A DNA stretch of 64,000 nt, taken from the NCBI GenBank assembly GCA_951406725.2, contig OX597819.1, forward strand, positions 43,648,001 through 43,712,000, written 5' to 3'. Origin of the DNA: Octopus vulgaris. Lineage: Eukaryota. Under the pieces are notes generated by a model. That model did no database searches, was not told the origin of the DNA, and saw only the letters and a list, made by a program, of their open reading frames with translations. Shown one piece after another: positions 9,690-58,700 of this stretch. Each line of letters begins with the position of its first letter. The stretch's first letter is position 1. Position numbers and translations under genes: made by a program.

Positions 9690-10800
9690 AGATCTGAGTG
9701 TAAAGACAAAGTCTTATACTAACTAACATGTCAGCTGTTTCGTTTAACGATCCCTTCATATGTCCAATGTGTGGATATATCTGAAGATCATTGGTTGGTT
9801 AAGTAACTGTATACGTGACTATATACAAAGTTTTTTCCAGCAAAATGTTTGGATGAAGCTCATGAAGAACCATGGAGAATGTTAAGACATGTATTTTTAA
9901 TGAAAGAAACAGAAGTACTTATCCTTAATGCTCAAGAAAATGCTTTACGAACCACTTCACTCAAGTGTAGCGTTGATAAGGCAGCAGTATCACTTTAGTG
10001 CAGATTACGGGAAACATCGTCTGAGCCAGTTAGACATATAATTTGAGGATGTTCAAAAGTAGTCTAAAAGGAGTACAAAAATGGCATGATAAAGTGGCAG
10101 TGTGAATACACTGCGAGCTGTGTTGGAAGTATAGCTTAGAATGTTTCAACGATTGGTATGAGCAGAAACCTTTCCCAGTAGCAGGGAATGCTCAGATGAA
10201 ACTCATATGGGATATATCAATCTACACGGATAAGAAGCTGCAGCATAACCTATTTCTTTACTATCCACAGGGGGCTAAACACAGAGAGGACAAACAAGGA
10301 CAGACAAACGGATTAAGTCGATTATATCGACCCTAGTACGCAACTGGTACTTAATTTATGGACTCCGAAAGGATGAAAGGCAAAGTCGACCTCGGCGGAA
10401 TTTGAACTCAGAACGTAGTGGCAGACGAAATACCGCTAAGCATTTTGCCCGGCATGCTAGCGTTTCTGCCAGCTCACCGCCTTAACTGCAGCATAACCGA
10501 CCAGATATAACTCTCCTACAGAAAGAGTCTAAACAATACACCTTCATCGATGTAGATATTCCTGGAGACCAGAGAATATTATAAAGACGGATGAACGAAT
10601 ACGTCGAGACGTACCAGGACATAACACTGGAAGTGAAGCGCACCCATTGAGTCTCTCCGTGTTACGTATAGTGATCGGTGCATTTGGGACAACAATATTC
10701 CTGCATGAAAAGCTGACAATACCAAACTTTATAGGAAGTACGCAGTTGGCAGCATTATTTGGAGCGGCACATGTATTGTGAAAAGTGTTGCGTCGCTGTG
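9690..10800 (+). pseudogene. Decayed R4/Dong-like non-LTR retrotransposon C-terminus (CCHC finger plus restriction-like endonuclease), split by a SINE
   Basis: Hand translation gives AQENALRT, CRL...VRHII*GC...EYKKWHDKVA, LIWDISIYTDKKLQHN|RPDITLLQKESKQYTFIDVDIPGD, VIGAFG and QLAALFGAAHVL; contains stops. Confidence 0.85.
10251..10485 (-). mobile_element. Full-length tRNA-derived SINE, family B, long-tail variant, with 13-bp TSD
   Basis: Head AAGGCGGTGAGCTGGCAGAAACG...GAGTTCAAATTCC; TSD ctgcagcataacc at 10238-10250 and 10486-10498. Confidence 0.92.
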
Positions 10801-10877
10801 CTGTATGGACGTGTTGAGATGTTAAATAGATAACTCGGTAGAGGAAAGGAAAATAGAAATGATAATAATGATAATAA

Positions 10878-10939: not shown

Positions 10940-11061
10940 CAGGTTTCTGAGCCATATAGTAGAATTGGTTCGACTGTGGCTTTGAATATTTCAAGTTTGA
11001 AGTCTCTACTTAGATTTGATGACCAGATCTTATGCATGTCATTACAGGCTGACCAGGCCAT
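10939..11061 (-). mobile_element. Internal RTE-clade LINE fragment embedded in (CTA)n
   Basis: MAWSACNDMHKIWSSNLSRDFKLEIFKATVEPILLYGSETW; LLYGSETW is the post-RT motif. Confidence 0.85.
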
Positions 11062-11384: not shown

Positions 11385-11714
11385 ATCCTTTCCAGTGTGA
11401 AATTTTGAGCGAATGGGGCCAGTCGATTATATTGACTCCAGCACGCAACTGGTGTTTGTTTTATCGACCCCATAAGGATGAAAAGTGAAGTCGACCTCGT
11501 GGAATTTGAACTTAGAACGTAAAACCGGTAGAAATGCCATGAAGCGGCTTGTCCAGCGTGCTTAAAGATTCTGCCAGCTCGCCGCCTTAATAACAACAAC
11601 AACAACAGCAACAATAGCAACGATAACAACAACATCAACAACAACAACGATAATAATAATAATTTTTTTTATCAACCTCCAAAAGGTAAAGTCGACTCCA
11701 GTGGCATTTGAATA

Positions 11715-11753
<39 letters not shown>

Positions 11754-12488
11754 AACCACCACCACCACCACCACCACCACCACCATCACCACCACCACCA
11801 CCACCACCACCACCACCACCACCACTCAGAACTCAGAACGTAGCGACTTCGAAATACCTATTTCTTTACTACCCACAAGGAGCTAAACACAGAGAGGACA
11901 AACAAGGAGAGACAAATGGATTAAGTCAATTATATTGACCTCAGTGCGTAACTGGTACTTATTTAATCGACCCCGAAAGGTTGAAAGGCAAAGTCGACCT
12001 CGGCGGAATTTGAACTCAGAACGTAGCGGCAGGCAAAATACCGCTAAGCATTTCGTCTAGCGCGTTGACGATTCTGCCAGCTTGCCGCTTTAATAATAAT
12101 AATCTTTTCTACTCTAGGCACAAGGCCCGAAATTTTTGGGAGCGGGGTCAGTTGATTAGATTGACTCCAGTATGCAACTGGTACTTAATTTATCGACCCC
12201 AAAAGGATGAAAGGCAAAGTCGACCTCGGCGGAATTTGAACTCGAAACGTAAAGGCAGATGAAATACATATTTCTTTACTACCCACAAGGGGCTAAATAC
12301 AGAGAGGACAAACAAGGACAGACAAACGGATTAAGTCGATTATATCGACCCCCAGTGCGTAACTGGTACTTATTTAATTAACGCCGAAAGGATGAAAGGC
12401 AAAATCGACCTCGGCAGAATTTGAACTCAGAACGTAGCGGCAGATGAAATACCGCCTGGCATACTAACGTTTCTGCCAGCTCACCGAA
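11385..12488 (-). mobile_element. Cluster of family B SINE copies, including two nested head-into-head junctions (11858/11859 and 12268/12269)
   Basis: Repeated gaaaggcaaagtcgacctcggcggaatttgaactc and ctgccagctcgccgcctt; the tail tatttctttactacccacaagg follows gaaatac twice. Confidence 0.9.
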
Positions 12489-17018: not shown

Positions 17019-17367
17019 CTCTTTTACTCTTTACTCTTTTAATTGTTTCAGTCATTTGACTGCGGCCATGCTGGAGCACCACCTTTTAGTACTTATTCTA
17101 TCGGTCTCTTTTTGCCGAACCGCTAAGTGACGGGGACCTAAATACACCAGCATCGGTTGTCAAGCAATGCTAGGGGGACAAACACAGACACACAAACACA
17201 CGCATACATATATATATACATATATACGACAGGCTTCTTTCAGTTTCCGTCTACCAAATCCACTCACAAGGCATTGGTCGGCCCGGGGCTATAGCAGAAG
17301 ACACTTGCCCAAGATGCCACACAGTGGGACTGAACCCGCAACCGTGTGGTTGGTTAGCAAGCTACTT

Positions 17368-19591
17368 TATTTCAAAACATTTGCCATAAAGGCAGTACAC
17401 AGATTAAGTTAACTTTGCGGGCTGGACGAGGACATTAATGAGGTGAATGATAATGAAAGAAAGATGATAAGGATGGGAGAAGACAGAAAGCGCCCGCCGA
17501 CTTTTGCTTCTCTAAAACATTGTTCTTTTTAAAAAAGATTAACACAAAACGAGGTATTAAACCTCTTACAATTTTTCCAATTTTGGGCTTAGCAGTCCAT
17601 TATTAATACAAAACGAGGTATTAATCCTCTTACAATTTTTCAATTTTTGGACTTAAGTCCATTACTAATAATACATATCGTCCTCGAAATAGCTTGTGCC
17701 CGCGCCCTCCACCATCAACCACGCCTCCCTCAGAACGTAGTCAAGTTCCGAGTTCGCGTCGCCCGGGACCAAGTTATAGTCTTCATTGAGCTCCTTTAGC
17801 CCTAGCGTCACGTCGAACGCCACGGCCTCCACAGCTACCTGCGGAGGCCATTCGGGGTCCTGTGTGAAGGCTAAAGGTGCTCCCTTGTAGTGCTCTTCCA
17901 TCACTTTTTCAATTTCTCCTCCTCTATAGAAGAGGACCAATACATTCAGTTCTTTCGTTGGCGGCACAGTTTCCGCCAACGGTATTCCTTCTCTTGTCGG
18001 TGGCACAACCCCAACCGACGTAGTTCCGCGACATTCCGGTGCCACACTGACAGCCGGCAACGTCCCGTTTTTCTTCCTCTTTTTCTTTTTTTTTCCCTTT
18101 TCAACTGAGGGAGGGTGCGTCTCCTCCGTGGCTGGAAGATTCGCCCTCCTCTCCTCATCCCTATTATCCTTTGGTGAGCACCCATTGTTGCTCACCTTCC
18201 TCTTTCGGCCTCTGCTTGAGGAGTCCTCTGCTTTCTCGGCCGTTATCGTTCCCTCTTCTAGAGGGGTTTTACTTAACTGTTCCGGGATCCTATTTTGTTC
18301 CCGAGGACAGTTCTTCTTTATGTGGCCGGACTCCAAGCACCGATGACACTTAGGGGGGCGACCCTCAAGCATCACCGGGTACCTGCACCCGGCCATTTTC
18401 AAAAAATCTGGAAAAACCAGATTGGCTGATTGGGTCCACAGGGTCAAAACTGCTTTCGAGCCAACCCAAGCAGCCGCAGGAAGAACTTTTACATTGAGGA
18501 GCTTAGTTTCGCTGTCACCCAGACCCCGGCGGATAGTCTCCTCTATCCACTCGGGTTCTATGTCGGGTGGCAGTCCGCAGATCCAAGCTTTCATTAATTT
18601 CTTTTTTTGTAAGTGGGCAGGAATAAGATTTCCTTACCCTCCAAGGGTTCGCTAGCAAATTTGCAAGCCTCTTCAGGGGTGTCAAACAGCAACCACACCG
18701 TTCCATATTTGACACCCCTGGAAATGAATTTAATTGTTGGCAAATACTCCTCCAACTCCTCCTCAATTGCCGTCTTTTCGAATAGGGCGATGGTGTCAAG
18801 TGCCTTGGAGTAGGTTCTCAACACCACCGTCCTATCTTCACGGTCCTTCAACCACTTTTTGGGTGGTATGATTTCCCACTCCAAAACTTTGTTATTTTTC
18901 ATTGCCATGTTTTTTAAAAAATATATTCAAATTAGACTCAAAAGCAGGAAGAAAAAAGTTCAAAAGTCTAAATAAATTTGATAGATTTTTGAAAAAACAA
19001 AAAGGAGAAAGCACAACAGAAGGGAAGAAATTAACGGAAAGTCGCAATAAAGAAAAAACAAAAGGGGGGGGGTAAATGAAGTTCAAAAGAAAGTTAATAA
19101 ACAGAAAAAACACAGCAAAAATATTCTGCGGTACTCCCGGCCTGGGTTGAACCTGGAACGCCGCAACTGCAACACAACCTCCACAAAAATGGGTCCGAAA
19201 GGTAATCCAATAGTGGCTTATTTTTATACTTTTCTTGCGAAGTACTCTGACAAGGGAATAAATTCAGCAAACCCAAACACAGCACTGGTTACTGCCAACG
19301 GTAATTTTAACAGTAACTGTATTGAATCCTGAGTATACGCCCCTCCACTGTTTTTTTTCTTTTTTTTTTTTTTTCAATGAACACAAAAACGGCAGCCGCC
19401 TAGCGCAGGCGAAATTGTCTCAGAGTTGGACACAACCTACTGAAATGATAATTGGCACGCAATAAATTATGCCCAACTCACAATAAACAAAATCACTTAC
19501 CTCGACAACTTTCCGTTTTTGGTCTTTTTTCTTTAGTTGGACTCACGTCCACTCTAGCTCAACAAGAAGCAACCGACTAACTGCGCATGTC
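17368..19591 (-). mobile_element. ORF1-only (half-L1-like) non-autonomous retroelement with 17-bp TSD
   Basis: TSD tggttagcaagctactt at 17351-17367 and 19592-19608; one ORF1-like reading; no endonuclease or RT; 3' end TGCC-TTTAT-GGCA-N8-GAAATA. Confidence 0.9.
17665..18908 (-). CDS. L1/Tx1-type ORF1 protein with CCHC zinc knuckle; split by one frameshift near 18602-18608
   Basis: ORFs 18594-18908 and 17665-18594. Contains EGRPPKCHRCLESGHIKKNCP and aligns with ORF1 at 44409-45776 (EDRTVV/EKRTVV, RGVKYGTV/RGRAYGTV). Adding one A to the A7 run fuses the two ORFs. Confidence 0.85.
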
Positions 19592-19638
19592 TGGTTAGCA
19601 AGCTACTTACCACACAGCCACTCCTGCGCCTATATATT

Positions 19639-22424: not shown

Positions 22425-23063
22425 TTTACTCTTTTACTTGTTTCAGTCATTTAACTGTGGCCATGCTGGAGCACCGCTTTTAGTCGAGCAAATCGATTCC
22501 AGAATTTATTCTTTGTAAGCCTTCAAATCTCCATGTGACGCTTGATATCCATACGTGGTATCTTAGACAGGTATATTTTTTACCATAGGCTCGAGCTGGT
22601 TAAAGCCTTGAGTGATGCTGAATAGACAATGCTCTTTTACTCTTTTACCTGTTTCAGTCATCTAACTGTGGCCATGCTGGAGCACCGCTTTTAGTCGAGC
22701 AAATCGATTCCAGAATTTATTCTTTGTAAGCCTAGTACTTATTCTATCGGTCACTTCCCCTTAGCAGTTCAGCAAAAGAGACCAGTAGAATAAGTACTAG
22801 GCTTACAAAGAATAAGTCTTGGGGATGATGTGCTCGACTAAAGGCGGTGATCTAGCATGGCCACAGTCAGATGACTGAAACAAGTAAAAGAGTAAAAGAG
22901 CATTGTCTATTCAGCATCACTCAAGGCTTTAACCAGCTCGAGCCTATGGTAAAAAATATACCTGTCCAAGATACCACGTATGGATATCAAGCTGGGGACT
23001 CAAACGATTGCAAAGTAAGCTTCTTAACCATTCGACTTGACTGCGTCACATGGAGATTTGAAG
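22425..23063. repeat. Family A SINE tails with an inverted duplication: arms about 22521-22752 and 22779-23063, plus direct repeat 22425-22521 / 22633-22731
   Basis: About 95 bp of unique flank is inverted with one mismatch; cttcaaatctccatgtgacgc pairs with gcgtcacatggagatttgaag. Confidence 0.9.
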
Positions 23064-30180: not shown

Positions 30181-30569
30181 ATCTTCTCGAGATATATTTG
30201 TGTGTGTATGTGTGTGTGTGATCTCTTTTAGTGTTACAGGTAACGTGTAACGCAAAACAAAATAATAAAAAAAAGCCTGTTGCAACGTCATTCCGTCGGT
30301 GATGAACCTGACAATCCTACTAAACCTACTTCGTAAAGTGGGTTTGCTTTAATTGGATGCCCTTAAAGACAATAAAACAAAACCTGTCAGAAGGAGGATA
30401 AGCGCGGTAAATCTATTTTTCTCGATCGTTGTAACGAGCACAAAATATACCATTTTGTTTCTCCTCTAGAAAGTTGTCTTTTTTTCTACCGGCCTTTTAG
30501 AAGCGGTAATAAATAGAGTGGTAATAAATTAAAACTATCTATTGCAGACGTGTATGTCAATGATACTGG

Positions 30570-30760
30570 ATTTAAATTTTAGCACAAGGCCAGCAACTGC
30601 GAGAGAAGGTGAAGTCGATTACATCAACCCCAGGGCTTATATCGTATTTATTTTATCGATCAGAAAAGAATGAAAGGCAGAGTCGACCTCGGCGGAATTT
30701 GAACTCAGAATGTGAAGACGGACGAAATGCCGCTAAGCATTTTGCCTTATATGCTAATGA
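30570..30760 (-). mobile_element. Family B SINE, decayed
   Basis: gaaaggcagagtcgacctcggcggaatttgaactcagaa...gacgaaatgccgctaagcatt. Confidence 0.8.
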
Positions 30761-33040: not shown

Positions 33041-33157
33041 CATACATACATACATATACATATATACATATATATACCTACATATATATATATACCCACA
33101 TGTCACTCTTCTCCGTAATTTACAGCCTTCGGGTTTGTTTACAAATTTATAAATATA

Positions 33158-33540
33158 CTAGCAGTATCGCCCGGCGTTGCTCAGGTTTGTAAGGGAAATA
33201 ACTATAAAGCATTTTTAGAGAGTTATAGCCAAAAAATAGCAAAAAAATGGAAAAAAAATGATGGTAAATTTATTTTGAGAGTTAAAAAAGGTGGAGTTGC
33301 GTCCCCTAGACGGTCTGTGGTTTGGGTTTCTGATTCTCGACCCCATGTCGAATTTATCGATTTTTTCAGAACTGGGGGAACTTTTCAAAATTTTCGCTGC
33401 GTTAGTTTTGAATTATGACATTGGGCTATGTGTGTGTCAAGTTTCATCAGAATCGGTTGAAAGCCGTGGTCAGAGTGAGGGTACGAGAAAACAGACACAC
33501 AGAAAACGCACAGACAAACTGCCGTTTATATAGAGAGAGA
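33158..33540 (-). mobile_element. Short non-autonomous Helitron
   Basis: Minus strand starts TCTCTCTCTATATAAA and ends with the hairpin CCTGAGCAACGCCGGG followed by CGATACTGCTAG^T. Confidence 0.85.
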
Positions 33541-35660: not shown

Positions 35661-35661
<1 letters not shown>

Positions 35662-38600
35662 TAGCAGTATCGCCCGGCGTTGCTCGGGTTGTAAGGGAAA
35701 TAACTATATAAGCATATTTAGAGAGTTATAGCCAAAAAATGCATTAAAAATTGAAAAAAAAATTAAGGTAAATATTTTTTAAATCGTTGACACATCGTAG
35801 ATATTTTTAGAGAGTTACTTCCCTTATATAAAAGCGAAAAAAATGCATTAAAATGGAAAAATATGATGGTAAATTTTTTTTAAATCGTAGACTCATCGTA
35901 GACGCACGCTAATACCCAGAAGGGCTCGATATGAATCACGACTATAAGATACCCGCTTTTGGTTAAACTGCACCGCAAAATGTGGGAGTAGTTAGGAATC
36001 GAAATCGTAGGAGACAGACACACAACTTCACTCTTATATAAAGATGCTTTTTTTTTTTCAGTCATAGAGTTAGATTTATGAAGGTCTTCAGTAGAAAATC
36101 CTTCGAATTCTGACTCGCTGCTTGATATAATGAAATTCGTATCCATTTTTTGTCAGAATTACAAATTTTGAAAACACAATAGGAACAAATTTCGGAAAAA
36201 AATCTCCCATAATTCACGGAATTAAAATTACACTTCGATTTTTGTACAAAACTGTAGTTGAAGTGTTTACGAAGTATAATACGTGTTTTCACGAATGTAC
36301 TAAAGAGATTTGCTCTGATATTCTCATTTAAATATGAATAGGTAAATTCGGGCAGCTTGGTAACTATATATAAGTGTCGTCTGTTTATACATAAACACTG
36401 TTTCATACTGCAATTATGTATACATATATCTATATATAATATTATATAATAAAATATATACAGAGTAAAATAAAAACCAATTTACCTTTTCTGTCCTCCG
36501 TGTGTCTTTGCAAATGTGTTGGAATGATAAGTGAGTTGTGTTTTTGCGCCTTTTTTACTAATAACAAACACACACGTGTTTGTATGTAGTTGTATGTGTA
36601 TGTAGTTGTATGTAGTTGTATATGTATGTGTATGCGTGTGTGTGAGGAATGACACACACACACTCTCGCAAGCACACATGTACATCAATGCTTTCGGAGT
36701 GATATGTTAAAATATTGAGTTTTCTCGAATTTTGTCTTAATTGGGGGTGAAATTGAAAGAAATATATTATGGCATGAGCGAATGGAGTACTTTGAAAAAT
36801 CTTAGGTAAATTCTAATTGAAGAAATTGTGTGAGGACTAAATGGTTATGTATTTATTTGTTTCTGTTTGCTGTGTTTTTTTATTTTTTGAGTAGTGGTTT
36901 AATTACTTTCAGTTTAGGCTTCCTCAAATCACTCTGTCGCTATTTACTTTCATTTTATTCGTTGCCCACTGTGTGTGTGCGTTTGCGTGTGGTGTAAACC
37001 AGACTAAGAAAAGCATTTGACACACACACAAGAATGTGAGTTTTCTGTAAATTTTGCTTAATTGAAGTTTAAATTTTAAAAACTGGACCTGGCATGACGC
37101 AATGCATTGTACTCTTAAAAATGCAAGGTAAATTGTAATTAAAGAAATCCTATATTGTAGATTTGTATAACTCCCAAAGGGAGGCAGATAAAATCTGCCT
37201 TTTATAATAAGACTAGCAGTATCGCCCGGCGTTGCTCGGGTTGTAAGGGAAATAACTATATAAGCATTTTTAGAGAGTTATAGCCAAAAAATGCATTAAA
37301 AATTGAAAAAAATTAAGGTAAATATTTTTTAAATCGTTGACACATCGTAGATATTTTTAGAGAGTTACTTCCCTTATATAAAAGCGAAAAAAATGCATTA
37401 AAATGGAAAAATATGATGGTAAATTTTTTTTTAAATCGTAGACTCATCGTAGACGCACGCTAATACCCAGAAGGGCTCGATATGAATCACGACTATAAGA
37501 TACCCGCTTTTGGTTAAACTGCACCGCAAAATGTGGGAGTAGTTAGGAATCGAAATCGTAGGAGACAGACACACAACTTCACTCTTATATAAAGATGCTT
37601 TTTTTTTTCAGTCATAGAGTAAGATTTATGAAGGTCTTCAGTAGAAAATCCTTCGAATTCTGACTCGCTGCTTGATATAATGAAATTCGTATCCATTTTT
37701 TGTCAGAATTACAAATTTTGAAAACACAATAGGAACAAATTTCGGAAAAAAATCTCCCATAATTCACGGAATTAAAATTACACTTCGATTTTTGTACAAA
37801 ACTGTAGTTGAAGTGTTTACGAAGTATAATACGTGTTTTCACGAATGTACTAAAGAGATTTGCTCTGATATTCTCATTTAAATATGAATAGGTAAATTCG
37901 GGCGGCTTGGTAACTATATATAAGTGTCGTCTGTTTATACATAAACACTGTTTCATACTGCAATTATGTATACATATATCTATATATAATATTATATAAT
38001 AAAATATATACAGAGTAAAATAAAAACCAATTTACCTTTTCTGTCCTCCGTGTGTCTTTGCAAATGTGTTGGAATGATAAGTGAGTTGTGTTTTTGCGCC
38101 TTTTTTACTAATAACAAACACACACGTGTTTGTATGTAGTTGTATGTGTATGTAGTTGTATGTAGTTGTATATGTATGTGTATGCGTGTGTGTGAGGAAT
38201 GACACACACACACTCTCGCAAGCACACATGTACATCAATGCTTTCGGAGTGATATGTTAAAATATTGAGTTTTCTCGAATTTTGTCTTAATTGGGGGTGA
38301 AATTGAAAGAAATATATTATGGCATGAGCGAATGGAGTACTTTGAAAAATCTTAGGTAAATTCTAATTGAAGAAATTGTGTGAGGACTAAATGGTTATGT
38401 ATTTATTTGTTTCTGTTTGCTGTGTTTTTTTATTTTTTGAGTAGTGGTTTAATTACTTTCAGTTTAGGCTTCCTCAAATCACTCTGTCGCTATTTACTTT
38501 CATTTTATTCGTTGCCCACTGTGTGTGTGCGTTTGCGTGTGGTGTAAACCAGACTAAGAAAAGCATTTGACACACACACAAGAATGTGAGTTTTCTGTAA

Positions 38601-38759
38601 ATTTTGCTTAATTGGAGTTTAAATTTTAAAAACTGGACCTGGCATGACGCAATGCATTGTACTCTCAAAAATGCAAGGTAAATTGTAATTAAAGAAATCC
38701 TATATTGTAGATTTGTATAACTCCCAAAGGGAGGCAGATAAAATCTGCCTTTTATAATA

Positions 38760-38762
<3 letters not shown>
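35661..38762 (-). mobile_element. Head-to-tail dimer of a 1.55-kb non-autonomous Helitron (35661-37212, 37213-38762)
   Basis: Each unit has a 5' TC and a 3' hairpin CCCGAGCAACGCCGGG plus CTAG; junction CTAG|TC at 37213/37212; no TSD; flanked by (TA)n. Confidence 0.92.
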
Positions 38763-40364: not shown

Positions 40365-40954
40365 ATTCCACTCGTGAGGTACCCTACAACTCCACTTTGT
40401 TATATATTCTTTTACTCTTTTACATGTTTCAGTCATTTGACTGCGGCCATGTTGGAGCACCGCCTTTAATCGAGCAACTCGACCCGGGACTTATTCTTTT
40501 TGTAAGCATTGTCAAGCAATGTTGGGGGGACAAACACAGACACACAAACACACTCACGCATATATATATATATATACATATATACAACGGGCTTCTTTCA
40601 GTTTCCGTCTACCAAATCCACTCACAAGGCATTTGTCGGCCCGAGGCTATAGTAGAAGACACTTGCCCCAAGGTGCCATGCAGTGGGACTGAACCCGGAA
40701 CCATGTAGTTGGTAAACAAGCTACTTTATTTCATATAATTTGCCATTTAGGCATTTACAAAGAGGGGACAAACAAGGACAGACAAATATAAAGGGTGAAG
40801 TAGCTTAACACAGTTACAATTTTCGAATGAAATTACGGATAAGATTATAAACAATGAATTTTACGAAGGCAATGTTTAAAAATATTAATGATCATGTCGA
40901 AGGACGGACACCCAGCCATCCGGGTAGAACCTTTACTTTCTGATCCGGTCACAC

Positions 40955-43900
40955 TTACCTGGTGCCAAACATACCCATCTTGTATGCCACAGGCTTCCAT
41001 CTTTTCACAAACATATCTCGTGACAGACACCTCTTCTCCAGCCTGATTTTGCTACTGAGGTGGTAACTAAAAAAGTTAATCAACCCCTGGGCAGAGACAA
41101 AGGTGCCTGTCACTATACCTTTCGTACGCGTCTTCCATACTGTTTCTTTCAGTATGGCTACTACACAGAAAAAACAAGCCTTTCTTTCCCTGTTAAGGAA
41201 AGGGGGCGGCACAATCTCGATGATAGACTCAGCTGATAGCTGTACTCTTCCCATCACTGACAACAGTTGTTCAACAAAAGCTATCAGTCCCGATAACTCC
41301 GGACACTCCACGAATGCGTGCAAGACGGTCTCCCTATCCTGCTCACATCGCGGGCATGTCGGCGAGACGGCACTACCGTGCCTTGACAGCTTGTCGCGAA
41401 CAGGTAAAGCCGCACGGAAACACTGCCAGGCCAGGGATTTATGGTAATTATCTAGATACCCCGGCCCGAACGTCCTCCGGAACAGGTTGACCAATTGATT
41501 TTCATCGTAGCCCAGGGTCTCCCCCAAGGCGTCTTCGGACTTAATCTCCACTAACCCGCTATAGAAATCTGTGGTGGAACTCCTATTGCCAGCGTTGCCC
41601 ACCCGAGATAGTAGCTGGAGCGCCTGACGGCACTCCAAATGCCGTTCACTCAGTTTAGGTCTCCGCTTGATCCATGCACCGATGTCCGTTAGGGATGTTA
41701 ACTGGGGAAGGTAGAACAGGACGTGCGGCGACCACACCTGCTCTCCATCCAGGTAAAGCCAGAGGTGCCTCAATCTTAACGCGAGTTTTCGCATCCTCAG
41801 CCAAGGCATCCCTAGCCCACCCTTTAGCGGTTTCTGGCAGCAGACAGAGCGCTTTACAAGTGGCTTTCCTCCTTTCCACAAAAATCGGAAAAGGATTCTC
41901 TCCAACTTGTTCAGCCACAAATCGGGGCAAGGCACCACGGTCAGACGGTAGGTGATTACTGATGCTATAAACATCTGCACCACCTCCGCCTTCCCTAGCA
42001 GGGATAACGCCCGCCCAGACCAGGTCTGGGTTAGAGCGGTCACCTTGTTGGCCACCTCACTCCAATTTTTCTCAATCTGGAGGTCTGGCCCGAACCAGAC
42101 TCCGAGCAGCTTAACAGGACCTTCCGTCCAACGCCCTACGACGTTATTGGACGGCATCGGCTTGCCCCTCCAGGTGCTGAGTTGCAAACCGACCGACTTG
42201 TCCTTGTTAACCTTTGCTCCTGCCACCGCCTCGTAGCTTTTGATGGCCTCTTCCACCACTGGAAGCTGGCCTTCGTCTGCCACGATGATGGAGGTGTCAT
42301 CCGCATACGCCGTAGCGCCTCTTCCACACCATAGATCATGCGGCGCGCCCCCTAGTGCCTCCAACTTCCGCAGCAAAGGCTCGAGAGCCAATACGTATAG
42401 GAGCGAGGACAGGGGACACCCTTGACGAACTGAACGCTCGATCCTGAACGGCTTCGAAAAGGAACGTTCACCTTGACTACAGACTCGATGTCGCTATACA
42501 AAGCAGCGATCCAACTTCGAAAGGCCGGGCCTAGGCCAGCCTCTCCGAGGACCGCCACCAGGTACCGATGGTCGACCCTATCAAATGCTTTGGACTGGTC
42601 TAAATGTACCAGTGCTCCCCCTGCGCCAGAAAGCTTCCCCACCCTCTCTAAGGAGTAGCGTATAAGGTGGAGATTGTCGTGGATCGTTCTGCCGGGGATA
42701 GCGCACGTTTGCGCTTCCCCGACAAGTTTGTCCACGACCCGCGCCAACCTTTTTGCTAGCACCTTGGCCAGAATCTTTAACTCTGTGTTTAACAGAGTTA
42801 TGGGCCTGAAGTTCCCTATCTCTTCCCCCTTGTTCGGGTCCTTCCTGATCAACGTCACCGCCCCCCGGCTCGCAGACTTGGGAATTCTCCCATTCTGCTG
42901 CCAGTTGGCGTAGACGCTAGCCAGCAGGTGCCCGAACAAGTCTGGCATACTTCTATAAAATTCATAGGGCAGACCATCGAGACCCGGCGACTTCTCCCCG
43001 GGGCACTTGCCCAACACCTCGATTACTTCCTCGGCTGTGATTGGCCCTTCACAGCACTCAGCCTCTCGTGTCGAGAGGCGCGGGCCACCAGACAGGAAGT
43101 CCCTAAGGGCCTCACCATGATCCAGCGTCCCGCACCTCCCGAACAACTCGGCGAAGTGCTTGTGAAGTGCCTCACACATCTCGTCCCGGTTCTTGATCGT
43201 GCATCCGTTTTCATCAACAAGAGACCCAATTGTGACATCGTTTCCACGCTGTGTTTCTATCGTACGGGCCCATCCGGCAACATTAATTCCCTCACGGCCC
43301 AATGCTCGTACTTTAGCCCGGACTCTACATCCCTCATGTTTGGTTTTGAGGTGACGGTCTAATGCCGTTCTCGCCGCTAAAATGTGAGATGCAGAGCCCA
43401 ACCTCAACGCCTCCTCTAAGTTCTTAACTAGTTGCTCTTCTATTCTAGCCCTATCTAGTCTTAGTTGTTTACTAAATCTAATGGACTCGAATCGAATGGC
43501 TCTTTTGAGGGTGAACCACCACCGCTTATTAACCACGGCTCCGGTTAACGCCCTCTGCACTAACACCTTAATCCGGCTACGGTATGCCTCGCGTGTCAAA
43601 ATAGACTTGTTCAGCTTCCAGTAGCCGGTTCCTATCTTAAGTGTGCTATCTATGTCCAGTCTACACGTGACCATTCTATGGTCAGTATAGGGCACCTGGA
43701 CGAGCTGTGGACAACTAAAACTAGACTTATCTCTAGTTCTTATCACTATCCTGTCTAGATAAGACTTGAACCTTCCGTCGCCACTCATCCAGGTCCACTC
43801 TGGGACGTTCGGATGGTCAAGTCTGTAACGATCTGCTAGCTGAAACCGCTTAAGCAGATCCACGAGACGTGAGTTCACTTTCCTATAGATCGAGCCAACG

Positions 43901-44356
43901 CTATCGATGTGTACGTCAACGATAGCATTAAAGTCCCCTAATATCACTAAAGTCTTCGACGTCACGAGAAAGCCCTCTAGGCGCCGATAAAAAATCAGTT
44001 TGGAAACCTCTAGCACAAGGTGCATAGAGTCCGATCAACCTGAAGGCCTTACTGCTGTATGTCACATCAAGGACGACCAGCCCACCTTCTGGGTCTACAT
44101 AGACTGTACTTGTCTGTAGAGCCAAGTCTTTACGGATCAGTACCACTACGCCCCCTCGCCCTCCGGTCTGGCCAGGAGACATGATTTTCTCGTAGCCATT
44201 CAGGAGAGGCGAGAAGGTTTGTAGGCTGTCCAGCTTGGTCTCTGTAGCAACCATCACATGTATATCATGTGATCTGAGGTCGTCGAGGAAACAAGCCTTC
44301 TTCCACTTCGAACTCAGACCACGCACATTTAAACAACCAAGGTTAAGCGAAGCCAT
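40955..44356 (-). CDS. LINE ORF2: AP endonuclease, reverse transcriptase and C-terminal zinc finger (about 1133 aa after repairing two 1-nt indels)
   Basis: LNVRGL, ETK, GDFN, YLDRI, TDH (APE); KSPGLDG, FRPITLLN, DQSKAFD, RQGCPLS, YADD (RT); CPRC...HAFVEC. Extra T near 43989-43994 and a missing G near 42465. Confidence 0.93.
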
Positions 44357-44408
44357 TACAAAAAGTAAAAGTTCTACTTACTTTTCGTTGGAGAGGTGGG
44401 GGCCGACC

Positions 44409-45776
44409 TCACCACACGTTTGTGGGCCCCCTCCTTCTCTCTCTCTTCAGATAGTCCAGCAAGTTCGCGACACGCCGGATGGCGTTTGGGTGTCTGTCTT
44501 TTAATTGTTTGAACGTTGTTTCCGCAATCCACGCGTGTCTATTTCGATCTTTGTATTTGTTGTACAGTCTTGCTGACTGATGCTGAACCACAATATCGTT
44601 TATGTATTTGTCTTGTGTGTCGAATTCAATTAATATGAGTTCATTTTCTTTTTGTCTTCTTTTTCTGGGCCAGTTGAGCGGGATTTTTTTTTTCCGTGTC
44701 TGTGGTGTGTCTTTGTTTTTATTATTTTTTGTAGGGGATGTGGACGGGGATGCTGCACGAATTCTTTTACGAACTGGTGTAAATCCCCCCTCTGATACCT
44801 CCATGGTATCGTCTGGGGTAGCAATAGTTTGTTCGGTAGGCACCGCAGTTTTTAGGAGGGTGGGAGGTTTTAATAGTGTAGGGGTTTGTGAGTGCGAGGG
44901 CTGGGTTTTTTCTTCAGTCTGGTTTGGGGTTGGCACCGTAACAGCAGGAGTGGGATTTTTTGTTTTTGTAGGGGTAGGTGTGTTTGCAAGGGTAGGGACT
45001 TTTTTATTATCTGAGGGGCCTGGTGTCTGCGGTTTCTTTTGCTTGTCTGGACAGTCTACACGAATGTGGCCCTTTTTACCGCAGGCGTAACAGGTGGGTT
45101 TTCGGCCTTCGACCTGTACCCTGAGGGCTACGTTCTCGCCCACGAGCACCCTCTCAGGAAGGAGCTGCAGGTCCTCCGCTGTTCCTTGAATTAATATATT
45201 AATGTTACGCCCGAGCCAAAATCGAGGGGTAGAGCATGTTACTTCTAGTATTTTTATTTTGTCCGCTCTTTTATATAACAGGGCGGCCACTACCTCTACC
45301 GGATCTACTTCCGGCGGGGCTTCTACAATCCTGACCCGGGACGACCTGCGTCCCCTATAGCTTGGAAAAAGTACCACCTCCTTGGTTTTTAGGGGGTTCA
45401 CAGAATGCCCGCGGGCCATTTCTTCCCCCGAGAAGCGGACATCCACAGTGCCATATGCCCGTCCCCTGGCGACGTACACGATGTCCTTCCAAATCGGGGA
45501 CAGGCATTTCTCGATGGTGCTTTTTTCAAAGTGTTTGAACCTTCTGCTTTGTGGACAGAAAGTTTTAAACACTACGGTCCGCTTCTCGGTTTCTACGATA
45601 CTGGCGGAGGGTGATATTGTAACATCACCACCCTCCTCTTGCATTCTTTTAAATAGCTCGACGAGCTGGTTGACATCGATGTCAATGTTCTCGGTAGCCA
45701 CCGCGGCTACCTCAGAAAATTTTTTAACATTGCTCTCCTCAAGAACACTACTTTCGTGAATAATTTCAACAGACAT
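44409..45776 (-). CDS. LINE ORF1 nucleic-acid-binding protein with CCHC zinc knuckle
   Basis: Uninterrupted ORF (first ATG at 45776); EGRKPTCYACGKKGHIRVDCP followed by a Pro/Thr/Lys-rich tail. Confidence 0.9.
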   Translation of the reverse strand: MSVEIIHESSVLEESNVKKFSEVAAVATENIDIDVNQLVELFKRMQEEGGDVTISPSASIVETEKRTVVFKTFCPQSRRFKHFEKSTIEKCLSPIWKDIVYVARGRAYGTVDVRFSGEEMARGHSVNPLKTKEVVLFPSYRGRRSSRVRIVEAPPEVDPVEVVAALLYKRADKIKILEVTCSTPRFWLGRNINILIQGTAEDLQLLPERVLVGENVALRVQVEGRKPTCYACGKKGHIRVDCPDKQKKPQTPGPSDNKKVPTLANTPTPTKTKNPTPAVTVPTPNQTEEKTQPSHSQTPTLLKPPTLLKTAVPTEQTIATPDDTMEVSEGGFTPVRKRIRAASPSTSPTKNNKNKDTPQTRKKKIPLNWPRKRRQKENELILIEFDTQDKYINDIVVQHQSARLYNKYKDRNRHAWIAETTFKQLKDRHPNAIRRVANLLDYLKRERRRGPTNVW

Positions 45777-46203
45777 TATTCTGTTGAAATTAGACAACAC
45801 AAAAATTACAAGTATTGGTTTCCCACAAAACTGGGAAACCTATAGAAAGTTTTTCTTCCAAAGTAGTTCAAAAAAGCAGTTGAAAAATTCCAATTCCCAC
45901 CCCCATTCGGGGGAGGGGCACGAAAATAGTCTGGCAGGACTATATATAGTCACGTAAATAAAAAGCCACAATGGCTAACAGTTCAACGGTAAGAAATTAT
46001 TCAATTATTTCCCGGTAAAACCGGAGAACAAGACAGTTCAGCAACGTTTAAAGGCAAATTTTTAGTAGTAGGAATTCAACAATTAACAACACAGCAAAAC
46101 TCTTACCGGGAAGAAAACGCGTCCAAACCGTAGTACGGTAAGCAAAGTCACTCTTCTGTCAGTGAGGTTAAACAAGCTACTTACCACACAGTCACTCCTG
46201 CGC

Positions 46204-46283
<80 letters not shown>

Positions 46284-46664
46284 CTATATACATATATGTG
46301 TGTGTGTGTTGCATATACCTATATTTAAATGTACACACATCAGACACATACACATTTACACATATGCATATATTCTGGAGCTATTTTTATTTCCGCGATG
46401 AATAATACAAGTCTCCAGCACGTAGTGTATACCTCCCTTACAACTGGTCTTTAATAAGCGAGGGAGCAATTAACATCTTGTCTTAATGTCAGTCAGATTC
46501 ACTCTCTGTTCGTGTCTCATCGTACACATAAACAGACAGGGAGAACACAACATAAGCACACACACACCCTCACATTTTTCCAAGATTTGTCAACCCTGTC
46601 ACGGTAAATGTTATTATCAAAACTATGTCTTTTACCTTTTAGCAGACACTGTGCACTTAGGACT

Positions 46665-47006
46665 CATCATCATCATTGTTCGACCGTGGTCGAGACAATG
46701 GAAGAAATATGTTACGCCAGACTTCAAGGTCCATCAAAGCATTACAGAGGTCCTGTTGCTGGATGCTTGTATCCCTGGAGATTACATCAGGGTAGGAGAG
46801 TGTGCACCCTCTAGTATCGTGAGCAGATGGCTTCCAGAAGAGAAGAGTAGAAATTACCTCGTTTTCAGCTCTACGACAATGTCCAGCAAACTGAACTCTT
46901 CTACCTTTCACAAGAGATGATACAGGTGGTAGTTTCCCATATATTTGTACTTTGGTTGGATGACGCTTTCACGAGAGAATATGGCCTTAAATATGGTTTC
47001 TGATAT

Positions 47007-55745: not shown

Positions 55746-56209
55746 GAGGCGTGGCTGTGTGGTAAGAAGCTATCTTCTCAATCACATTGTTCCGGGTTCA
55801 GTCTCACTGCGTGGCACATTGACCAAGTGTCTTCGACTATAGCCTCGGGCTGACCAAAACCTTGTGAGTGGATTTGATAGACGGAAACTGAAAGAAGCCC
55901 GTCCGTCCGTCCATCCATCCATCCATCCATCCATCCATCCATCCATCTGGATATGGATATATTTATGCGTATGTGTTTGTGTTTGTCCAACCCCCTCCCC
56001 GCCGCCCTCACCGGCGCTTGACAACTGATGTTGGTATGTTTACATTCCATAATTTAGTGGTTCGATAAAAGAGGCCGATTGTTATAAGTACTAGGCTTAC
56101 AAAGAATAAGTCACGGGGTCGATTTCTTCGACCAAAGGCGGTGCTCCAGTATGGCCGCAGCCAAATGACTGAAACAAATAAGAGAATAAATGAATAACAG
56201 AATAAAAGA
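55746..56209 (+). mobile_element. Uninterrupted family A tRNA-SINE (empty-site reference)
   Basis: gtggctgtgtggtaagaagctatc...gggttcagtctc...aaggcggtgctccag...tail; the head is contiguous across the site occupied in two other copies. Confidence 0.9.
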
Positions 56210-58483: not shown

Positions 58484-58700
58484 AAGGCGGCGAGCTGGTA
58501 GAATCGTTAACTCGCCAGGCAAAATTCTTGGCGACATTTCGTTCGTCTGTACGTTCTGAGTTCAAATTCCGCCGAGGTCAAATTTCTTGTTCATCCTTCC
58601 GGGCCAATAAAGTAAATACCAGTTGAGCGCTGGGTCGATATAATCGACTTACTCCTACCCCAAAATTGCCGGCCTTGTGCCAAAATTTGAAACCAATAAT
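58484..58700 (+). mobile_element. Family B SINE, short-tail variant
   Basis: aaggcggcgagctggtagaatcgtta...gagttcaaattccgccgagg...ggccttgtgccaaaatttgaaacc. Confidence 0.85.

Follow-up and report, generated by a model that had tools for sequence, protein, structure and literature searches.

A family-B SINE tail and the 3′UTR of a Tx1-type LINE have a 26-nt block in common in Octopus vulgaris

The window analysed here, that is, the whole stretch of 64,000 nt of Octopus vulgaris DNA, is AT-rich and microsatellite-rich, and 18,172 of its 64,000 bases were masked before it was compared with itself by blastn. It contains a full-length LINE, an ORF1-only element and copies of two SINE families, A and B, which we take to be octopus-type SINEs (Table 1). 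A blastn search of the window with the family-B copy at 10251 gave 13 hits: the copy itself, six more family-B copies, two pieces of one decayed unit, the LINE 3′UTR, two family-A bodies and one 13-nt match. Three family-B copies (10251, 11859 and 12269) carry one type of tail, tail 1, and three (12105, 58484 and 30570) carry another, tail 2; the copy at 11421 has a partly deleted tail. The breakpoint between the two types lies after a body hairpin ending in ATCGACT. The comparison of SINE and LINE is thus based on one LINE copy and three tail-1 SINE copies within the 64-kb window.

Table 1. Positions of the elements, their parts and flanking duplications in the window
Feature	Position	Strand	Basis or remark
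Family-B SINE, tail 1, full length (235 nt)	10251..10485	-	blastn, alignment
26-nt pyrimidine/G-rich block common with LINE 3′UTR	10283..10308	-	mismatch scan
Tail-1 terminal hairpin (4 bp, 5-nt loop) and GAAATA end	10251..10275	-	
13-bp TSD, 3′ of 10251 SINE	10238..10250		
13-bp TSD, 5′ of 10251 SINE	10486..10498		target C^GGTTATG
Family-B copy, uninterrupted, tail partly deleted	11385..11590	-	within trinucleotide repeats
Headless decayed family-B unit, from position 52	11682..11858	-	directly after 11859 tail; microsatellite-split
Family-B tail-1 copy	11859..12093	-	head (1-51) more diverged than body
Headless family-B unit (tail 2), from position 52	12105..12268	-	directly after 12269 tail
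Family-B tail-1 copy	12269..12486	-	12-nt deletion ending just before position 52
Family-B tail-2 copy, 5′ part lost	30566..30746	-	CTTGT-loop hairpin
Family-B tail-2 copy	58484..58697	+	CTTGT-loop hairpin
17-bp TSD, 3′ of ORF1-only element	17351..17367		
ORF1-only (HAL1-like) element	17368..19591	-	same bond of another family-A head; without 26-mer
17-bp TSD, 5′ of ORF1-only element	19592..19608		
Family-A body motif resembling 26-mer	40523..40548	-	21/26 to LINE; also 17171-17196, 20/26
14-bp TSD, 3′ of LINE	40713..40726		
Full-length L1/Tx1-type LINE, 5442 nt	40727..46168	-	within family-A SINE head
LINE 3′UTR (~228-231 nt)	40727..40954	-	26-mer 40761-40786, hairpin TGCC-TAAAT-GGCA, GAAATA end
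LINE ORF2 (endonuclease, RT, zf-RVT)	40955..44356	-	three frames (two frameshifts)
LINE ORF1, 455 aa, zf-CCHC	44409..45776	-	
14-bp TSD, 5′ of LINE	46169..46182		preceded by first part of family-A head (to ~46206)

No tRNA was detected in SINE families A and B by ARAGORN or Rfam. A general A- and B-box consensus fits all six SINE heads with one or two mismatches, with several rival sites for the A box. The 3′ half of family A (22789-22842, 56084-56132) aligns with the family-B body (12330-12410; AATAAGTAC...GGGGTCGAT..TCGAC), a similarity that 0/500 and 4/500 shuffles equalled for two copies and 122/500 for a third; judged from this alignment, the two families may have a module in common. The tRNA-derived Octopus SINEs OR1, OR2 and OK are attributed to Ohshima and Okada (1994) in passages of PMC4758252 and PMC4824008, and family A contains the CCTTGGG motif named for CORE SINEs in an excerpt of PMC5786205.

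Several further repeats are present in the window. Five family-B units lie within 1.1 kb at 11385-12486, all on the minus strand and amid trinucleotide microsatellites. A direct tandem duplication at 35661-38762, with a unit of ~1.55 kb, more than 99% identity and TA repeats at its flanks, may be a Helitron-like element or else have been duplicated in the assembly; the start of the unit recurs at 33146-33224. Two-copy repeats of 80-94% identity occur at 31353-31702/48337-48685, 26047-26169/39151-39271, 28384-28483/46373-46473 and 1270-1335/61393-61458. A fragment at 46660-46968 (minus strand) ends in GAT repeats and is preceded by an 85-nt repeat also found at 10976-11060 (93%); from its motifs we take it to resemble an RTE C-terminus, a label not confirmed by Pfam or PDB. 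The host of the 10251 SINE (9900-10870, plus strand) resembles, by its motifs, a decayed R2/R4-type retroelement in its C-terminal part, a label that Pfam, atlas and PDB searches did not confirm, and the SINE splits the HN-RPD motif of this putative host.

The LINE carries the ORF2 anatomy of the L1 group, with an APE endonuclease, a reverse transcriptase (RT) and a C-terminal zinc domain. Pfam recognised RVT_1, zf-RVT and Exo_endo_phos (below the curated cut-off), and the best solved relative of ORF2 was L1 ORF2p (E 1.5e-36; R2, 4.7e-11). ORF1 matched zf-CCHC at E 1e-5, with no Transposase_22 and no RRM hit in Pfam, and its look-alikes in the atlas were CCHC/ZCCHC3-RBD clusters (score 0.91-0.93). 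Excerpts of PMC5203782 tie type I ORF1, which has a CCHC knuckle and not Transposase_22, to Tx1 in non-mammalian animals, so that the CCHC-type ORF1 found here, outside the mammals, agrees with Tx1. In an RT tree built by a quick method from 78 rows (77 fetched proteins and the RT region of the window), the LINE grouped at 100% with 33 unnamed proteins, the nearest being P0215 (71%, 383 columns), and deep forks were weak; as the tree held no labelled Tx1 reference, the assignment to Tx1 is an anatomical call. Homologue searches with ORF2 returned mostly unnamed proteins and those with ORF1 no homologues. The 912-aa protein P0215, itself unnamed, is 62% identical to the C-terminal ORF2 piece, and this degree of similarity is evidence that closer sister families exist. 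For Octopus vulgaris, parts of PMC13282606 count 893 SINE families as recently active but unclassified and 13 families as L1-Tx1.

The ORF1 of the second element is spread over two frames, with 34% and 24% identity to that of the LINE (E 2e-14 and 2e-8), and tblastn with 120 ORF2 homologues matched the window only within the LINE, at 40985-44266, and nowhere in this element. With a LINE-homologous ORF1, no ORF2, a LINE-like 3′ end and a TSD, it is HAL1-like. Its 3′UTR contains a tandem duplication of ~63-70 nt (17538-17670, 89% identical). Both elements are inserted at the bond GT^AAGTAG, in two family-A heads that are identical at 120 of 131 positions (n=2). A segmental duplication behind the two same-site insertions was rejected, the inserts being 24-34% identical in protein; such divergent ORF1s in such similar host heads indicate that the two insertions were independent. 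Among five family-A heads with a readable site, the two that read AAGTAG are interrupted and the three that read AAGAA are uninterrupted; a sixth head lacks the site. At the DNA level, the best of 17 listed matches between the LINE and the ORF1-only element is their last 37 nt (E 0.035), and over the last 27 nt they agree at 22 positions, which none of 2000 shuffles reached. This terminal conservation is the strongest sign of a lineage that would recognise a defined 3′ end, and in combination with the common bond it suggests a site-specific Tx1-type system reading such an end.

The LINE 3′UTR also contains a 26-nt block that recurs in tail 1. As stated in the earlier note, positions 10283-10308 and LINE positions 40761-40786 are identical at 25 of 26 nt, and the block was confirmed in the other two tail-1 copies with 25/26 (12301) and 24/26 (11891) identical positions. 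Only four sites in the 64 kb, namely the three tail-1 copies and the LINE, have at most three mismatches to the 26-mer, and none of 100 dinucleotide shuffles had any. Under an order-4 Markov null, a match of at least 25/26 anywhere between a 66-nt tail and a 231-nt UTR has a probability of 7e-9; with blastn the similarity covers 30 nt, of which 28 are identical. Chance or a plain microsatellite as its origin was rejected by the Markov null and the shuffles, and by these statistics the block is common to the tail-1 SINE and the LINE beyond chance. The ORF1-only element, inserted at the same bond as the LINE, has no 26-mer, and the block is thus not needed for the target of the LINE.

The block begins 8 nt past the tail 1/tail 2 breakpoint and keeps its register, starting 58 nt (SINE) or 60 nt (LINE) before a common GAAATA end; no poly(A) follows this terminus in the tail-1 SINEs or in the LINE, in agreement with the earlier description. 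When the last 66 nt were aligned globally with the LINE, each of the three tail-1 copies beat 2000 of 2000 shuffles, and the three tail-2 copies were ordinary (918, 430 and 1624 of 2000). Of the four retroelement 3′ ends that the window offers for comparison, the Tx1-type UTR alone was matched by tail 1 (0/500 shuffles; others 76-482/500). The earlier note had reckoned with a better match to a different LINE clade; none of the three other 3′ ends in the window matches, and a better match within the window was rejected, the two other retroelement-like 3′ ends, tentatively labelled R2/R4-type and RTE-type, having given nothing.

Apart from the four sites, the only site of the window with at least 21/26 identity to the LINE motif is one family-A body. 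Family-A bodies (40523-40548, 17171-17196, 55980) carry a version of the motif with 20-21 of 26 positions, and there it adjoins their TG repeat. Further matches of tail 1 were sought in 596 Gb of prokaryote genomes, in which the 21-nt core of the 26-mer occurs twice with no SINE around either; these were rejected as chance bacterial hits. It is conceivable that a low-complexity TG/TC repeat underlies the motif, either taken up by both elements from the abundant family-A body or arisen twice by slippage: the resemblance of the family-A body to the LINE motif was not reached by any of 500 shuffles, no TGTTTGTCC 9-mer of the window (seven in all) lies outside family A, tail 1 and the LINE, and one bacterial match reaches 29/31 via a local tandem repeat. 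We nevertheless consider this origin very improbable, given that family-B SINE and LINE have three differences from family A in common over the first 21 nt, that so large a body of prokaryote sequence holds just the two exact 21-mers, and that register and terminus would be left unexplained. A second block of similarity between tail 1 and family A is weak and uneven (2-441/500 shuffles over nine comparisons).

Downstream of the block, the tail ends in a short hairpin. The GCCC-CTTGT-GGGT structure ascribed earlier to the 12269 copy is present, and all eight ends examined (the survey left out 11421, in which the hairpin is deleted) have a 4-bp stem closed by C-G and a 5-nt loop ending in T; within the 44-nt terminal stretch, this hairpin lies 12-15 nt from the end. 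Six ends pair at 4/4 and two at 3/4, which random window positions do in 1.6% and 8.8% of cases, respectively. A check of stem covariation, as the earlier note had proposed, gave 30 of 32 paired cells, three of four pairs changed on both sides and a score of 0.73 versus 0.21 (0/500 shuffles) for eight related rows, representing about three lineages and cut by hand around the hairpin; two of the five covariation measures, both pair counts, were ordinary (247 and 118/500). Single folds were not significant (z -1.55 to +1.26), with the hairpin in the minimum-energy fold in five of eight. Both tail types have the loop CTTGT (five of the six B tails with a hairpin), with CCTGT in 10251; the LINE has TAAAT and the ORF1-only element TTTAT, so that SINE loops and LINE or ORF1-only loops differ and have only the last T and the closing C-G in common. 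The claim that 58484, 30570 and 12105 have a different tail is therefore correct as regards the 26-mer, which they lack, but not as regards the hairpin, which has the same CTTGT loop; its occurrence in tail 2 suggests that the hairpin may be ancestral to family B. In zebrafish L2 elements it is the loop that carries specificity, according to passages of PMC4176376, and if this rule carries over, the LINE at 40727-46168 would not be the direct partner of the SINE.

The distal end of tail 1 gave a mixed picture. Its last 33-35 nt did not beat shuffles against the LINE (108, 270 and 191/300; last 33 nt in a separate run, 15, 182 and 167/2000) and were marginal against the ORF1-only element (9, 6 and 12/300). 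They were closest to the tail-2 copy 12105 (24, 5 and 2/300) and not similar to the ends of 58484 and 30570 (149-161 and 37-257/300). This leaves some room for a mosaic, in which a patch of 26-30 nt alone passed between LINE and SINE in either direction, hairpin and end stem from tail 2, and the partner LINE is left unspecified. The similarity to 12105, the CTTGT loop in five of six hairpin-bearing B tails (with CCTGT in 10251) and the patch-free ORF1-only element would all agree with it. However, the patch lies at a matching distance from the 3′ end (58 and 60 nt), two of the three tail-2 ends are not significantly similar to tail 1, and tail 1 differs from tail 2 in its sharp GAAATA terminus and 13-bp TSD, the tail-2 copies terminating in ATT-type repeats or showing no clear TSD. 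A mosaic is thus rather unlikely.

The 13-bp TSD of the 10251 copy is as the earlier note described it, and no other tail-1 copy has a clean one. All three tail-1 copies abut GGT or TGT, and two of the three are located at position 52 of another family-B unit: the headless units directly after the 11859 and 12269 tails start there with GGTATTTC and TGTATTTC, and three uninterrupted family-B copies read GGCATTTC or GACATTTC at this position. At both junctions (11853-11864, 12262-12274) the tail end and the next unit form a near-palindrome, GAAATA-GG-TATTTC, by which the RNA end is complementary to the target top strand 2 nt past the junction. The head of the 11859 copy differs from 10251 at 13 of 51 positions and the rest at 19 of 184 (p 0.01; CpG columns masked, p 0.09), and from 12269 at 11 of 37 and 16 of 184 (p 0.001; masked, p 0.014). 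This fits a young copy having entered an older head, and on these counts the annotated 11859 copy is a probable chimera with the older target copy. The 12269 copy has no contrast between head and body (p 0.34) and a 12-nt deletion at the junction. Position 52 lies between an A-like box (15) and a B-like box (78), so that insertion there would restore a promoter. Since no run of four T occurs until 170 nt downstream of the 10251 copy, its transcript would read through and its end would have to be chosen internally.

Both arrays might also be copies of one founder dimer of tail-1 copy and headless unit, spread by the partner of tail 2, and not repeated site-specific insertions. We regard this as possible but doubtful. 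In its favour are the ATT repeats flanking both arrays, as they flank tail-2 copies, the 12269 head that is not older than its body, and the putative TSD copies of the 11859 array, which agree in only 7 nt. Against it, the second units are unequally decayed and have different sequences, GCTACG and TTTACG, at a site diagnostic of the subfamily, and the 11859 head is equally far from tail-1 and tail-2 copies.

The earlier note had interpreted tail 1 as a tail swap that recruited this SINE subfamily to a stringent Tx1-type machinery. The block beyond chance, the sharp GAAATA end and a TSD in the size class of that of the LINE agree with this interpretation, but tail 1 is not a clean copy of the end of this LINE, its last 33-35 nt not beating shuffles and its loop and target being different. 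That the LINE family at 40727-46168 itself donated the whole tail and moves the SINE is for this reason improbable. The 26-mer in register with the same GAAATA end, the TSD lengths (13 bp for the SINE against 14 bp for the LINE and 17 bp for the ORF1-only element) and targets that all follow a pyrimidine and begin with a purine would be expected from such a donor; nevertheless, the targets are C^GGT and T^AAGTAG, the last 33 nt are dissimilar by sequence, the loop that differs is the determinant of specificity in zebrafish L2 (PMC4176376, in part), and none of the three tail-1 copies lies in a family-A head.

On balance we favour a sister Tx1-type family as the mover of the tail-1 subfamily, with the tail probably acquired by template switch. 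A lineage of site-specific Tx1-type LINEs would insert into SINE heads of this genome, the LINE at 40727-46168 and its ORF1-only relative using one bond in the family-A head, and would start reverse transcription at a defined non-poly(A) end composed of a 4-bp stem, a 5-nt loop, a spacer of 6-8 nt and GAAATA. We infer a transfer from LINE to SINE, in which the tail-1 subfamily took its last ~58 nt from this lineage, whose enzymes would then mobilise it. Most likely the mover differed from this LINE in having CTTGT as its loop and in targeting C^GGT, a site at position 52 of family-B heads, so that tail-1 copies would target their own family; its ORF2p would bind the terminal hairpin, nick C^GGT and prime at GAAATA. 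A LINE ending like tail 1 was not seen in the window.

Animal L1-group elements are the textbook case of relaxed, poly(A)-reading reverse transcription. Sequence-specific tails within the L1 clade are reported for monocots and a green alga in PMC3747384, and a SINE with part of its tail in common with a Tx1-type LINE is a pairing rarely described for this group. The stringent SINE/LINE pairs in Table 1 of that paper likewise have a 3′ segment in common, a small terminal stem-loop and tail exchange within one SINE family, the last also described in excerpts of PMC4824008 and PMC5786205. Their partners, however, are mostly CR1, L2 and RTE, the L1-clade pairs come from maize/sorghum and Chlamydomonas, and the table names no Tx1 partner and no cephalopod; the best-matching part here lies upstream of the hairpin. 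Within the literature searched, which also covered parts of PMC8967140, PMC9004415, PMC3787270 and PMC10294476, we found neither a SINE whose tail is shared with a Tx1 element nor a Tx1 element aimed at SINE heads, a pair that Repbase, Dfam, SINEBase or older papers may contain.

A close parallel is SINEU of crocodilians (PMC4494074), inferred to be moved by Tx1-Mar, a target-preferring Tx1 family aimed at another transposon, and likewise found in tandem insertions around the TSD. SINEU differs in its snRNA heads and its poly(A) tail, and no LINE with a common 3′ end was found for it, target preference alone providing the link; in our case a sequence block is common to both elements, poly(A) is absent, and insertion is aimed at a SINE head. 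With the target-specific Tx1 clade (Tx1L, Keno, Kibi, Koshi; PMC4494074), the LINE shares two ORFs, a CCHC-type ORF1, an APE-RT-zf ORF2 and recurrent insertion at one bond of a multicopy sequence, with TSDs of 14-17 bp. As targets, the text of PMC4494074 mentions DNA transposons and LTR elements, genes for snRNA and 5S, and satellites and microsatellites, but no SINE head. The ORF1-only element resembles HAL1 (half-L1), as portrayed in excerpts of PMC5753468 and PMC5786205, in having ORF1 alone, a LINE-like 3′ end and a long TSD; it differs in being site-specific and in having no poly(A), and the ORF1-only types in those excerpts derive from the L1, Jockey and CR1 clades.

Tentatively, the findings could be extended to a small radiation of Tx1-type LINEs specialised on SINE promoter heads, each with its own bond and loop, in which tail-1 copies would target themselves between the A and B boxes and the ORF1-only satellite would follow the same route. 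If this were true, a 5′-truncated copy arriving at position 52 would rebuild a complete promoter, and base-pairing of read-through RNA to the nicked target would become possible. Nested SINE arrays, which inflate family counts in such genomes, would be explained if LINEs target SINE heads, together with possible self-targeting. The LINE, the ORF1-only satellite and the SINE, with a common 27-nt terminal architecture, would form a natural series for testing the stringency of Tx1-type ORF2p and whether loop and target specificity change together.
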